64,000 nt of DNA from Pseudomonas phage Pa_AttikonH10 (PQ741806.1); one strand, 5' to 3'; shown: positions 12,144 through 59,290, counted from the stretch's first letter. Numbers and translations are program-made. The notes: generated by a model from the sequence alone, not told the origin.

Positions 12144-12172
12144 GTAATATACTGTTTAAATATGTTTGAATA
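12144..12172 (-). promoter_or_regulatory. conserved promoter-like element (family copy 1)
   Basis: gtaatatactgtttaaatatgtttgaata; reads TATTCAAAC...TTTAAACAGTATATTAC in gene orientation, with a TATATT -10-like box. Confidence 0.4.
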
Positions 12173-12187
12173 AGGGAGTAGTAGTTA

Positions 12188-12448
12188 TTACATATCGTGC
12201 AGGTAGGTCTCATCAATGATGGCACGGGCTAGCTCAATGAGACTATCTTCATCAACAACAATGTTACCATCTTTCCAGGTAGCGCTATGGGATAACCAGT
12301 TACGGTAATCCTTACCTCGTACAGGATTGATGCATACCTGACGAGTAGCTGCATCACGGTCACCACGGAAACCCATGATAGCACGTGCACGACGGATTGC
12401 TTCTTTCTCCAAGTCTTCGTCAGATTTAAAAGTCAGGAAAGTTGTCAT
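12188..12448 (-). CDS. hypothetical protein (86 aa)
   Basis: ORF with promoter-like element upstream. Confidence 0.4.
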   Translation of the reverse strand: MTTFLTFKSDEDLEKEAIRRARAIMGFRGDRDAATRQVCINPVRGKDYRNWLSHSATWKDGNIVVDEDSLIELARAIIDETYLHDM

Positions 12449-12493
12449 AGTTTGATTCCTTTTTACTGATTTAATAGGTTTAATTACACTGTT

Positions 12494-12524
12494 GTGATAT
12501 ACTGGTTAAAATGGTTTGAATGTA
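12494..12524 (-). promoter_or_regulatory. conserved promoter-like element (copy 2)
   Basis: gtgatatactggttaaaatggtttgaatgta. Confidence 0.4.
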
Positions 12525-12529
12525 TTATT

Positions 12530-12862
12530 TCATTTCCACAGACGACAATAGTCATCTACATGTCGAGTGATTTCTGCAACAGCCCTGAGTCGCCGCCGGC
12601 CAGTTAATTTAGAGCAGTGTTTATTAACTAATGTATCAACAGTTTTACGTAACCTAACACAGCGTTCTTCATTAGGTATATCTTGTTCGATAAACAGGCT
12701 AGTTAATTTATGGATTTCCATATGGATTTTCTTACATACATCGTTAGCCGATTTTTCTTCATTTAATTTGTTGTATGATTCGACTAACTTAACAATAGTT
12801 GTAGCAACAGTAGTTGCGGCAACAAAAATTTGAATACCATTGATAAAATTTTTATTAAACAT
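12530..12862 (-). CDS. hypothetical protein (110 aa)
   Basis: ORF; hydrophobic N-terminus. Confidence 0.4.
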   Translation of the reverse strand: MFNKNFINGIQIFVAATTVATTIVKLVESYNKLNEEKSANDVCKKIHMEIHKLTSLFIEQDIPNEERCVRLRKTVDTLVNKHCSKLTGRRRLRAVAEITRHVDDYCRLWK

Positions 12863-12913
12863 TTTTAAACTCCAACTAATGTATTAAAAAAATATGTCTA
12901 TATTGAAAATAAA

Positions 12914-12933
12914 GCCCTCCCCGAAGGGAGGGT
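12914..12933 (-). terminator. rho-independent terminator CCCTCCC-CGAA-GGGAGGG
   Basis: Perfect hairpin plus T-run in minus orientation. Confidence 0.5.
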
Positions 12934-12963
12934 GTATGTCGCCAATAAGTGTTACTAATTTAT

Positions 12964-13176
12964 TTAGTTAGTTTGACCATACGTTCTTTCAAAGTTGTTT
13001 ACATCATAACCTGAGTGGTGTGTTGCAGAACCACCTGAAGTAGTATCTATAATCTTAACTACCACTTCATCATTTTCAATGTAAACCGACAGTTTATCTC
13101 GCATAAAATCCACGTGGTCATTTCGAGAACGTAGATATTTCATTACAGCTTCGCCACTGATTTTACTGTTAGCCAT
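12964..13176 (-). CDS. hypothetical protein (70 aa)
   Basis: ORF between a terminator and the next gene. Confidence 0.4.
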   Translation of the reverse strand: MANSKISGEAVMKYLRSRNDHVDFMRDKLSVYIENDEVVVKIIDTTSGGSATHHSGYDVNNFERTYGQTN

Positions 13177-13178
13177 TA

Positions 13179-13415
13179 TTATTTCCTCGATTGATTCCAG
13201 TTAAAATTATCTTTTGCATTTTTAGTGAAGAACCCGTTACCCCAACCAAATGAGTATCTAAAGTCCTTGATTACACCAACATCCGAATCGATAACCTTAT
13301 ATTCAATGACTTTATCACTATTCTCCAGAATGACTAAGATCGCGATAAGATCTTTAGGATCACCTACAGTCAATTCATGTCTTTCAGACTCGTCTCTGTG
13401 GATAACGATGTACAT
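13179..13415 (-). CDS. hypothetical protein (78 aa)
   Basis: ORF, tightly packed. Confidence 0.4.
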   Translation of the reverse strand: MYIVIHRDESERHELTVGDPKDLIAILVILENSDKVIEYKVIDSDVGVIKDFRYSFGWGNGFFTKNAKDNFNWNQSRK

Positions 13416-13432
13416 GGTACTTTATCCTCTAA

Positions 13433-13948
13433 TTATACCCATTTAGTTACTGGGAGTTCGAAGGTTTCACACAAGTCGAGTACTTTACGATGTTCCAAGT
13501 TATTTTCTGGATAGAAGGTAATGGGTGTAGTCGGACTACCCCAATTAACACGACATCCAGTTTCTTTATGGATTTCGCCAAGTACAGTATATGCACCTGC
13601 CCCATCTGCATAACCCATTTGATTAGGGTTAACGCAGATTTGAGTAAAACGCTCCGTCAATACTCGATTAATAGTGATGGTCAAGAGACGAACGAACTCA
13701 CGAGTCTTCTCGATGTCGTCTACCCAGAATTCCAGAAGGATCCATTTCCCATGAGGGTTATCATGCCCACCTTGGAAGAATACACAGAAACCTTCTTTTG
13801 CCTTATAAAACTCGTGATTGGTAATGTTACATTCAACCATTTGTTTCACTGCATGCCATACACGCTCGGTGACATAATCACCATAAAGTTCGATGCAGTG
13901 ACCACGGCCAGGGAATTGTTCTTTTTTAGAAAATTTAATTTCGAACAT
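13433..13948 (-). CDS. hypothetical protein (171 aa)
   Basis: ORF; its 5' UTR and promoter are a 53-bp exact repeat of 12100..12153. Confidence 0.45.
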   Translation of the reverse strand: MFEIKFSKKEQFPGRGHCIELYGDYVTERVWHAVKQMVECNITNHEFYKAKEGFCVFFQGGHDNPHGKWILLEFWVDDIEKTREFVRLLTITINRVLTERFTQICVNPNQMGYADGAGAYTVLGEIHKETGCRVNWGSPTTPITFYPENNLEHRKVLDLCETFELPVTKWV

Positions 13949-57013: not shown

Positions 57014-57014
57014 A

Positions 57015-57371
57015 TTATACAAGTAGCTTTTCAATAGTGAAGCTTGTCCAGACCATTGCCCTATAACCAACACTCTCTTCAGTATAAGTGATATCATCAA
57101 ACTTATTAGGTGGCATGAAACCACGTTGTGTACTAGCATCAGTCACAACAAGATTAGAATCTTTTAAAGTTTCATTTAGAGCCTTAAGTTTATCCTTACT
57201 AATTGATCCCTTAACATGGAACTTAAAATAAGCATAGCCTTTATGATTGATACGACAACTGTCAAGAACAGTTTGTTTATCATTCATTTGACTCATCAGA
57301 TCACTAATAACTGCATCATCTTCAGGAGTATCGTCATTGACAATATTGATTAATTCAATATAAGTTGGCAT
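57015..57371 (-). CDS. hypothetical protein (118 aa)
   Basis: ORF. Confidence 0.4.
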   Translation of the reverse strand: MPTYIELINIVNDDTPEDDAVISDLMSQMNDKQTVLDSCRINHKGYAYFKFHVKGSISKDKLKALNETLKDSNLVVTDASTQRGFMPPNKFDDITYTEESVGYRAMVWTSFTIEKLLV

Positions 57372-57428
57372 TCTTTTTGTTTCCTTAATTAGATAAACTA
57401 CATAAGATAATTTTTAATTGATATTCTA

Positions 57429-58325
57429 TTAAATTTTCAATAGGAACCCATTGTGATTAAATGAGATAATACAGTTATGCCCCATCATGACAGTATGATA
57501 AGATACTATATTGTCACGTGTATTATTTGAAATCTTGTTCACCTTAAATTCATTCATGATCGCATTATGAATGGCTAAGTCTTTTTCTCGATACTGGTTT
57601 GAAAAAATAATAGAAGTAGGGTTAATATTGATAGTATCCATTGCATTAAGAAAATCTTCAACATCAAACTTTTTAATAGTTTCAGATTTTCCAACACAAC
57701 ATTCGGTTTTATCAATTAATGAAAAACCAATAGTCCTAATTGGTTCATCCTTATTATGGAAGCTATAATTGGTAATGCTCATACCTATCAATAGTCCATT
57801 TTTATCTACATTAACTACTTTAGAATCAGTGTACTTATAAATATCACTGATTGCATAACCAGCCGAATACAATACATCTTTAAAATGACTAGTTACTTTA
57901 TCAATAATAAAGTTTTGATAATCTGTTTGATATAGTTTATCACTATGTTCAAGCTTTTTGATAATATCACTTAGTTCATGATACACGTTAGTGCAACTAT
58001 TCGAAAAATAATTATCTTTTATTCCTAAACTAGTTAACAGGTCTAGTTGGATTTCTTTTTTAGATAGTTTCGTAGAATTACTAAGTTTTTCAATGACGGA
58101 TGTAATTGTACGTAGATCAATTGCTAGTGAAAGTGATTTAAAGATATTATTAATTGGTGTATCAGATAGCTTTGAAATAGCTATTAGTAGATTATCTAAT
58201 TCATCATTAGTAATTTTCAGTTCTTTCACAATATCATTATATTCAATTAGTTTACCATCAATAATATTACAGATTAGAAGTTTATGTAATTCTTTAATAG
58301 TGGTATTAACTTGTAGATTATTCAT
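57429..58325 (-). CDS. hypothetical protein (298 aa)
   Basis: ORF. Confidence 0.45.
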
Positions 58326-58345
58326 TTTTTTACCTTTTAGTTAAT

Positions 58346-58783
58346 TTAAAATTTATTTACAGCTCTAAGAAAATATTCAGATGGATCATCGAAGAAGACA
58401 ATACTATCAACAACACTATTTTGTCGAGTACACCTTACTTTGATAAGATTATATTCTCTGAATTTATTAAGCCCCCAAGCTTCTTTAGCACGATGGCGTA
58501 ACCCACTACCAACAATAGCCCCATACCTAGTTTGTTCAACAAATAAATAAACATCCCAGCCATGATGATTATCATGGTATTTTGCGTAGTATTTATTGTC
58601 TTTAGTTTTGTTTAAACTAAGACTATACCTTTCTGTCTGTAGTTGATTAATATTCGATTTAATCATTTCATTTAATTTGGGTTCCACTGTATGAATGACA
58701 TCGCCAGCAGTAGTGGCCATTACCTTTAGTTTGTGGTGCACGTTCGTAAGAACGTCCTCCCAAATGTTAGTAACTACGTCCAT
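58346..58783 (-). CDS. hypothetical protein (145 aa)
   Basis: ORF. Confidence 0.4.
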   Translation of the reverse strand: MDVVTNIWEDVLTNVHHKLKVMATTAGDVIHTVEPKLNEMIKSNINQLQTERYSLSLNKTKDNKYYAKYHDNHHGWDVYLFVEQTRYGAIVGSGLRHRAKEAWGLNKFREYNLIKVRCTRQNSVVDSIVFFDDPSEYFLRAVNKF

Positions 58784-58828
58784 CTATTAAAACCTCGACA
58801 CATTAATTTGATTTTGTAATACACACAT

Positions 58829-58860
58829 GTAATATAGATCTCAAATAAAATTTAGTGCAA
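58829..58860 (-). promoter_or_regulatory. conserved promoter-like element (variant)
   Basis: gtaatatagatctcaaataaaatttagtgcaa. Confidence 0.3.
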
Positions 58861-58861
58861 T

Positions 58862-58882
58862 AGCCCTCCCCGAAGGGAGGGC
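58862..58882 (-). terminator. rho-independent terminator
   Basis: agccctccc-cgaa-gggagggct. Confidence 0.5.
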
Positions 58883-58894
58883 TTTATGCTCTTA

Positions 58895-59224
58895 TTATCT
58901 GTTAACTACACGGTAATTATCAATAATAAAATCGATATGTTGTTCAACCTCAGCTAGGAAACACCCATAGGTGAATCGATCTAGTTTATTAAGGGCCTCA
59001 GTTAGTAGAGGTTCGATATAAATATTTACTTCAGCTGTTGAGGGTACTTCTACATATTTGTTTTCATATTCGGTGAGTTTCTCTTTTACTTTTGTCAATT
59101 GCTTTTTATAATAGATTTCCATAGCCAGTTCTTTATAAACTGAATGCACACCATTGCAAATGCTATAACCAAATGCCAGTCCGCCCAGCACCAGAATACC
59201 AGTAGAAATAGTGGACATATTCAT
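58895..59224 (-). CDS. N-terminally TM-anchored protein (109 aa)
   Basis: AAGGAG RBS; MNMSTISTGILVLGGLAFGYSI. Confidence 0.45.
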   Translation of the reverse strand: MNMSTISTGILVLGGLAFGYSICNGVHSVYKELAMEIYYKKQLTKVKEKLTEYENKYVEVPSTAEVNIYIEPLLTEALNKLDRFTYGCFLAEVEQHIDFIIDNYRVVNR

Positions 59225-59260
59225 GGTATATCTCCTTTTTTCAAGATTGAATTCACTGTT

Positions 59261-59290
59261 GTAATATACTGTTTAAATATGTTTGAATAC
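59261..59290 (-). promoter_or_regulatory. conserved promoter-like element (copy 8)
   Basis: gtaatatactgtttaaatatgtttgaatac, ~36 nt upstream of the ATG. Confidence 0.4.

Follow-up and report, generated by a model that had tools for sequence, protein, structure and literature searches.

In the genome of Pseudomonas phage Pa_AttikonH10 (PQ741806.1), a stretch of 64,000 nucleotides (nt), hereafter called the window, carries a conserved element of about 30 bp that is repeated upstream of eleven minus-strand genes between positions 12,144 and 59,290. These elements very probably are early promoters of the kind known from phage phiKZ, which would be read by an RNA polymerase (RNAP) brought in with the virion. 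The window belongs to a phiKZ-like jumbo phage of Pseudomonas aeruginosa and is 86–100% identical to KTN4, phiKZ and their relatives. The region 28000-40000 shows 100% identity to the phage 'Koomba boorn-mokiny kep-wari Wadjak 1' and 99.5–99.8% to KTN4 and fnug, and the region 58700-59400 shows 100% identity to KTN4 and 86% to phiKZ at PHIKZ240-242, on the opposite strand. Since phiKZ is matched on the opposite strand, the window is, as judged from the alignment, equivalent to the reverse complement of phiKZ between about 232 kb and the end of that genome (280 kb), running on into 1-14.7 kb. The minus-strand genes of the window thereby correspond to the leading strand in the phiKZ annotation. 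The DNA comes from a close relative (a KTN4, fnug or Wadjak-type isolate), not from phiKZ itself.

The repeated element

The repeat and its co-orientation with minus-strand genes had been described in a first-pass annotation. All of the eleven copies listed there are present, each in the minus (gene) orientation and sharing at least 30 nt. When a copy is placed by the base matching the G of GTAATATA, two of them shift, to 28848 (instead of 28846) and to 55757 (instead of 55745). The sequence TATATTAC is exact in 9 of the 11 copies, and the remaining two read TATATCAC and, at 28848, TATATTAT.

An 18-nt core, GTAATATACTGTTTAAAT on the plus strand, has 7 matches in the window at three mismatches or fewer, against 0.26 expected. 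A position weight matrix (PWM) of 38 nt, comprising the 30 nt that end at the C of TATATTAC and the 8 nt downstream, was built from the 11 window copies, which score 19.6-43.2 bits when each is left out in turn. Fifty Markov shuffles of the window reached a PWM maximum of 18.0 bits, with a mean of 0.26 matches at 12 bits or more, and no PWM match of at least 12 bits occurs in the plus orientation of the window. Only one extra candidate is found in the window, at 45261-45298; it is weak (14.1 bits) and lies inside the range of the shuffles, and the earlier list of copies is therefore essentially complete. The bare 8-mer is hardly enriched in the window (13 occurrences versus 6.8 expected), so that the signal resides in the full element.

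The possibility that the repeat is a by-product of gene duplication was considered and rejected. All-against-all BLASTP among the 11 downstream proteins detected no significant similarity, the best E value being 0.001 over 19 amino acids (aa). Because these proteins are mutually unrelated, the repeat is regulatory rather than a remnant of duplicated genes. A Pfam search of the downstream genes returned nothing except a sub-threshold deaminase match in the PHIKZ260 ortholog (49005-49364, minus strand).

Architecture of the element and its position relative to genes

Numbering here assumes that the transcription start site (TSS) is the seventh base after TATATTAC. Three AT-rich blocks lie about 10 bp apart, i.e., about one helical turn. 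The near-invariant TATATTAC occupies -14 to -7, and further conserved blocks at around -20 and -30 are present in the alignment and in the information content of the PWM. These occur in two forms, here called class A and class B: the block at about -23 to -17 reads TTTAAAC in class A and TTTRAGA in class B, and the block at about -33 to -27 reads TTCAAAC in class A and TAAAWWW in class B. The spacing of 13 nt between TTCAAA and TATATT reported in the first-pass annotation is correct. The 11 window copies without exception, and 29 of the 30 phiKZ sites described below, have a conserved T followed by G or A at the sixth and seventh positions after TATATTAC; the site of gene 218.1 reads AG. Transcription is predicted to start at this G/A, 6-7 nt past TATATTAC, consistent with the conserved TSS 6 nt downstream of the consensus reported previously (PMC5312081).

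In every copy, 33-56 nt separate the final C of TATATTAC from a downstream start codon, which has a Shine-Dalgarno sequence before it. The distance of 35-80 nt given earlier agrees with this if it is taken from the 5' part of the element. The predicted 5' untranslated regions (UTRs) are 27-50 nt long, each with a Shine-Dalgarno sequence, and the typical 5'UTR of phiKZ is 31-40 nt (PMC8244752). The elements had also been placed directly after the terminator of the preceding gene, giving repeated units of terminator, promoter, ribosome binding site and gene. Strong GC-rich hairpins do lie immediately upstream of 6 of the 11 copies (14500, 49408, 52093, 55757, 58829 and 59261), and the copies at 12144, 12494, 13995, 28848 and 38344 have no convincing upstream hairpin. 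About half of the units thus fit the full description; its promoter, ribosome binding site and gene part holds for all 11.

Orthologous sites in the phiKZ genome

The full 280-kb phiKZ genome was scanned with the matrix made from the 11 window copies only, at a cut-off of 14 bits or more. This gave 30 matches, all on the plus (leading) strand and all located 27-94 nt upstream of an annotated plus-strand coding sequence; genome-wide, the positional bias towards gene starts is absolute. The genes concerned are PHIKZ005, 006, 010, 010.1, 031, 036, 041.3, 054, 058.1, 068, 070.1, 076, 102.1, 105, 121, 166, 166.1, 185, 204, 216, 218.1, 230.2, 241, 242, 246.1, 254, 260, 267.1, 283.1 and 293.2. Among these is the nuclear-shell gene gp54 (chimallin), followed by gp55 of the non-virion RNAP (nvRNAP), and operons with other nvRNAP subunits are also headed by a site, namely gp68, gp70.1-74 (gp71-74) and gp121-123 (gp123). 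Sites upstream of the nvRNAP genes are what a two-polymerase model requires. Every one of the 11 window copies has an orthologous site in phiKZ, and 7 of them are identical over all 38 nt.

Early promoters of phiKZ have been counted as 28 (Ceyssens 2014, as cited) or 32 (PMC8244752), and 18 of them were recovered by ONT-cappable-seq (PMC10914365). PHIKZ054 and PHIKZ260 have been named as genes with early TSSs, that of PHIKZ260 being a primary TSS (PMC8244752), and both are found among the 30 PWM sites. The phiKZ promoter has been given literally as 'TATATTAC' (PMC7058600 Table 2), and the early promoters of phiKZ and 201phi2-1 have been described as conserved at -10, -20 and -30 (PMC11512511). 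The window elements share with the phiKZ early promoters the TATATTAC core, the -20 and -30 blocks, the strand bias, the distance to the start codon and the orthologous positions; there is no material difference, and only a few variable positions differ. In its count of 30, strand bias, named genes and motif, the set agrees with the published reports and is the known phiKZ early-promoter class. Likewise, the hairpin that precedes window promoters is the published phiKZ terminator motif, CCYCCCC...GGGRRGG followed by TTAT (PMC10914365). The elements of the window are collected in Table 1.

Table 1. Proposed early promoters and terminator hairpins in the window, with predicted transcription starts and the genes that each promoter is proposed to drive
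Position	Strand	Feature	Score and phiKZ counterpart	Predicted TSS	Downstream gene
12136..12173	-	early promoter, class A (TTATTCAAACATATTTAAACAGTATATTAC + N5-TG)	PWM 42.3 bits; identical to phiKZ 4494-4531	~12137	49-aa ORF (open reading frame) 11948-12097, PHIKZ010.1 ortholog
12486..12523	-	early promoter, class A, TATATCAC variant	PWM; identical to phiKZ 4144-4181	~12487	ORF 12188-12448, PHIKZ010 ortholog
13987..14024	-	early promoter, class A	PWM; identical to phiKZ 2643-2680	~13988	ORF 13433-13948, PHIKZ006 ortholog
14492..14529	-	early promoter, class A	PWM; ortholog of phiKZ 2139-2176	~14493	ORF 14043-14447, PHIKZ005 ortholog
14539..14560	-	GC-rich terminator hairpin just ahead of the 14492 promoter	-20.5 kcal/mol, z = -6.1
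28619..28645	both	bidirectional terminator hairpin closing the 28840-28877 single-gene unit
28840..28877	-	early promoter, class A, TATATTAT variant	PWM; ortholog of phiKZ 266860-266897	~28841	lone 45-aa ORF 28654-28791, PHIKZ293.2 ortholog
38336..38373	-	early promoter, class B (ATTTAAGATCTATATTAC)	PWM; identical to phiKZ 257548-257585	~38337	ORF 37954-38307, PHIKZ283.1 ortholog
45261..45298	-	weak possible 12th copy, TATATAAT core	14.1 bits; same sequence at phiKZ 250622-250659		50-aa PHIKZ267.1 ortholog
49400..49437	-	early promoter, class A	PWM; identical to phiKZ 246685-246722	~49401	ORF 49005-49364, PHIKZ260 ortholog
49455..49475	-	terminator hairpin preceding the 49400 promoter
52085..52122	-	early promoter, class B	PWM; identical to phiKZ 244000-244037	~52086	ORF 51679-52053, PHIKZ254 ortholog
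52128..52147	-	terminator hairpin preceding the 52085 promoter
55749..55786	-	early promoter, class A variant (AAAAAGCTATATTAC)	PWM; identical to phiKZ 240336-240373	~55750	ORF 55460-55723, PHIKZ246.1 ortholog
55805..55824	-	terminator hairpin preceding the 55749 promoter
58821..58858	-	early promoter, class B	PWM; ortholog of phiKZ 237265-237302	~58822	ORF 58346-58783, PHIKZ242 ortholog
58862..58883	-	terminator hairpin (GCCCTCCCTTCGGGGAGGGC) abutting the 58821 promoter	-20 kcal/mol, z = -3.7
59253..59290	-	early promoter, class A	PWM 46.6 bits; ortholog of phiKZ 236833-236870	~59254	ORF 58895-59224, PHIKZ241 ortholog
59309..59326	-	terminator hairpin preceding the 59253 promoter

The weak copy at 45261-45298 may be a degenerate early promoter or may belong to another class.

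Probable early promoters for an injected RNA polymerase

With a probability of about 0.93, the elements are early promoters of a phiKZ-type (Chimalliviridae) jumbo phage that are read by an injected, virion-packaged multisubunit RNAP (vRNAP). In the proposed scheme, the vRNAP (gp178/149/180/80 in phiKZ) would enter with the DNA on injection and initiate at the elements immediately after infection, needing neither the host RNAP nor new protein synthesis. Its transcripts in the window would cover mostly small orphan early genes, and at other places in the genome its targets would be the gene for the nuclear shell and those for the second RNAP, the nvRNAP. The GC-rich hairpin terminators ahead of many of the promoters would insulate the units from one another. 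For this reading, the motif, its statistics, orientation and position, and the orthology to phiKZ sites come from the present analysis, and the mapped TSSs, the early timing, the rifampicin resistance and the injection of vRNAP are taken from the phiKZ literature. There, the early promoters are assigned to the co-injected multisubunit RNAP of the virion (PMC8244752, PMC10914365, PMC10612078, PMC13282480, PMC7598289), and the vRNAP has been reported to be injected and to co-localize with the injected DNA, independently of the host RNAP (PMC10612078, PMC13282480, PMC7598289). A virion holds 7-30 copies of the multisubunit RNAP, which is later excluded from the phage nucleus, an exclusion that moves transcription on from the early phase (PMC10612078). 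Chloramphenicol does not prevent the accumulation of early transcripts in the related phage AR9.

Some points weigh against this reading. TSS positions in Pa_AttikonH10 are predicted by orthology. The genes of the vRNAP are themselves located beyond the window: the RNAP genes annotated in phiKZ are PHIKZ055, 071, 073, 074, 080, 149, 178 and 180, and the virion and non-virion RNAP genes alike fall outside the 64 kb, which are syntenic with phiKZ at 86-100% identity. Agreement with the published promoter lists was checked site by site for PHIKZ054 and PHIKZ260 only. The literature searched yielded no report in which initiation by the vRNAP at these promoters was reconstituted in vitro, and it is for this reason that we can only infer that the three blocks, on one face of the helix, are recognized by the vRNAP itself and not by a co-injected specificity factor.

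The first-pass annotation had rightly suggested a phage-specific promoter class distinct from sigma70 promoters, a point borne out by a sigma70 scan and by the phiKZ literature; its proposals for the enzyme, a modified host RNAP or a phage sigma factor or activator, are not supported. It is very unlikely that the host sigma70-RNAP transcribes these elements as it does the early promoters of T4 or T5, using TATATT as the -10 box. TATATT matches TATAAT at 5 of 6 positions, is located about 7-12 nt before the predicted start as in bacterial sigma70 promoters, and has AT-rich upstream sequence that could act like an UP element, but no -35-like hexamer is present at 16-18 bp, the place of a TG extended -10 is taken by CAG or ATC, blocks at -20 and -30 are found instead, and the invariant positions reach as far as 'AC' and N5-TG, which sigma70 does not read. 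A lax -35/-10 scan for sigma70 promoters, covering 11900-14700 and 48000-60000 (with four copies at 12-14.5 kb and five at 48-60 kb inspected), called none of the elements inside these intervals, nor were sigma70-like sites enriched there over shuffles (72 versus 61.9±8.2; 11 versus 12.1±3.2); the sigma70 reading was rejected on these grounds. Moreover, phiKZ infection is rifampicin-resistant and independent of the host RNAP (PMC4666361, PMC13282480). The same independence, together with the lack of sigma, alpha or omega homologues encoded by phiKZ (PMC4666361, and for sigma and the host RNAP also PMC7598289), makes it extremely unlikely that the host RNAP is redirected by a phage sigma factor or activator. 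The candidate activator, a putative helix-turn-helix (HTH) protein encoded at 10422-11024 on the minus strand (200 aa), has a weak match to the HTH-like DUF3853 in its C-terminal part, and an activator might conceivably bind at the conserved -20 and -30 blocks. However, this match (residues 131-195, E 9e-4) is below the Pfam cutoff (19.8 versus 22.1 bits). Residues 1-134 of the protein align to PHIKZ013 (135 aa) with 65% identity, and phiKZ, where the C-terminal extension is interrupted or no longer in frame, nevertheless carries the same promoters. The ORF is itself an early-region product, and a protein that has yet to be made could not turn on the initial transcription of an infection. The HTH activator was thus rejected, its domain match being sub-threshold and the domain not intact in phiKZ.

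In T4-type phages, promoter-early stem-loop (PeSL) cassettes bracket small orphan genes with a stem-loop and an early promoter, the latter being read by the host sigma70 RNAP. The window resembles this arrangement, since a hairpin and a promoter flank many small orphan ORFs, and the repeats might accordingly serve above all to shuffle small genes, as cassettes for recombination or mobility, with their action as promoters coming second. In support of this, a promoter-5'UTR cassette of 56 nt is identical between the copies at 12144 and 13995, whose downstream proteins are unrelated, and a single-gene unit, led by the 28840 copy, lies in antisense direction as an insertion in a gene block of the opposite strand. 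Mobility of this kind is, however, compatible with a role as promoters, and in phiKZ such a role is established by published TSS data. The conservation is also position-specific, with an invariant TATATTAC and variable spacers, and not uniform as recent recombination would leave it. That the repeats are cassettes in the first place and promoters only secondarily is hence hardly credible, and early promoters of the vRNAP are the preferred reading.

Comparison with other phages

Other jumbo phages that encode a vRNAP, namely 201phi2-1, OBP, N1M2, EL, PhiPA3, AR9 and phiR1-37, likewise have an AT-rich conserved block of about 10 nt near -10, followed after about 6 nt by the TSS and immediately preceded by a hairpin terminator, as in the window. 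The consensus varies from phage to phage: it is AAATATATATTAT-N6-G in AR9, KATATTAT in OBP and N1M2, and TTAWTAVAA_HYWTTTRARR_BTATATTACDWHDGTG in 201phi2-1 (PMC7058600 Table 2). The last of these is close to class B, and the class B form also resembles the consensus of OBP and N1M2. Modules of a hairpin and a promoter are also found in other genera, a class B-like promoter following the hairpin in PhiPA3 (...GCCCTCCCTTCGGGGAGGGC-ttatgctg-TAATTAATTTCAGATCTACATTACAACAGTG) and a class A-like promoter in PA1C (...GCCTCCCTTCGGGGAGGC-tttatgttatc-TTACATTTAAAGCATTTTAAACCCTATATTACAAATGTG). Among the phages compared, the class A form (TTCAAAC-N3/4-TTTAAACAG) is present only in phiKZ-like phages and PA1C.

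Coliphage N4 follows a similar strategy, in that an injected virion polymerase transcribes its early genes. The N4 vRNAP is, in contrast, a single-subunit enzyme that reads DNA hairpin promoters with a stem of 5-7 bp and a loop of 3 nt, and the window elements have no such hairpin. Single-stranded DNA folds of six elements gave 0 to -2.5 kcal/mol (z -0.9 to +1.3), no better than shuffled sequences, and N4-like hairpin promoters were rejected for this lack of structure.

A scan of IMG/VR with the degenerate TTTRARNNNTATATTACNNNNNTG was uninformative: among the matches listed, most are single and chance-like, and a few jumbo-sized or fragmentary contigs have multiple matches. Two contigs of 33-35 kb, 3300007103_000012 and 3300007103_000015, have at least 4 and at least 3 matches, respectively, and may be fragments of uncultivated phiKZ-like phages with the same early-promoter grammar.

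Promoter subclasses and possible portable units

Written in full, class A is ATTYAAAC-N3/4-TTTAAACAG-TATATTAC and class B is AYTAAAWWWW-TTTRAGATY-TATATTAC. Class A accounts for 8 of the 11 copies in the window and 13 of the 30 sites in phiKZ, and it is always a small orphan ORF that follows. Class B accounts for the other 3 and 17, and its phiKZ sites include those of chimallin gp54 and of every nvRNAP operon, i.e., conserved core early genes. No published statement of this split was found in the literature searched, among which the original mapping paper of 2014 was not included.

The 56-nt identity noted above is found on comparing 12097-12160 with 13948-14011, where the promoter and the whole 5'UTR, from TTTAAACAG through AAAAAGG, are the same ahead of the PHIKZ010.1 and PHIKZ006 orthologs; it suggests duplication or recombination of a promoter-UTR cassette. 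The stretch 28619-28877 is a self-contained single-gene early unit composed of a promoter, a 45-aa ORF with a hydrophobic segment and a bidirectional terminator. It is located antisense between tRNA-Thr (28935-29011, plus strand) and a plus-strand gene, in a block of tRNA, structural and ribonucleotide reductase (RNR) genes that are otherwise on the plus strand, and it looks like a moron. Six tRNA genes (Leu-taa, Pro-tgg, Met-cat, Asp-gtc, Asn-gtt and Thr-tgt) are present among the plus-strand genes at 23517-29011. In the phiKZ record, seven are annotated here; among them is a second tRNA-Asn, which has no ARAGORN call in the window.

The split into two classes, the cassette identity and the antisense single-gene unit hint at portable expression modules and possibly at functional subclasses. 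That classes A and B are functionally distinct, or also that class A promoter-5'UTR cassettes are spread by recombination as portable expression modules, is a tentative and rather improbable proposal. If it were so, the two classes might differ, for example, in strength, in timing (immediate-early accessory genes versus core early genes) or in the co-injected specificity factors they use.

Significance for the phage

For phiKZ, the motif, where it lies in the genome and its attribution to the vRNAP have been in print since 2014, with re-mapping in 2020 and 2024, and the consensus early promoter is already in use as an engineering part (PMC12676376). For Pa_AttikonH10, the value of the elements lies in annotation: they mark 11 early transcription units in this isolate and predict the TSSs of these units.

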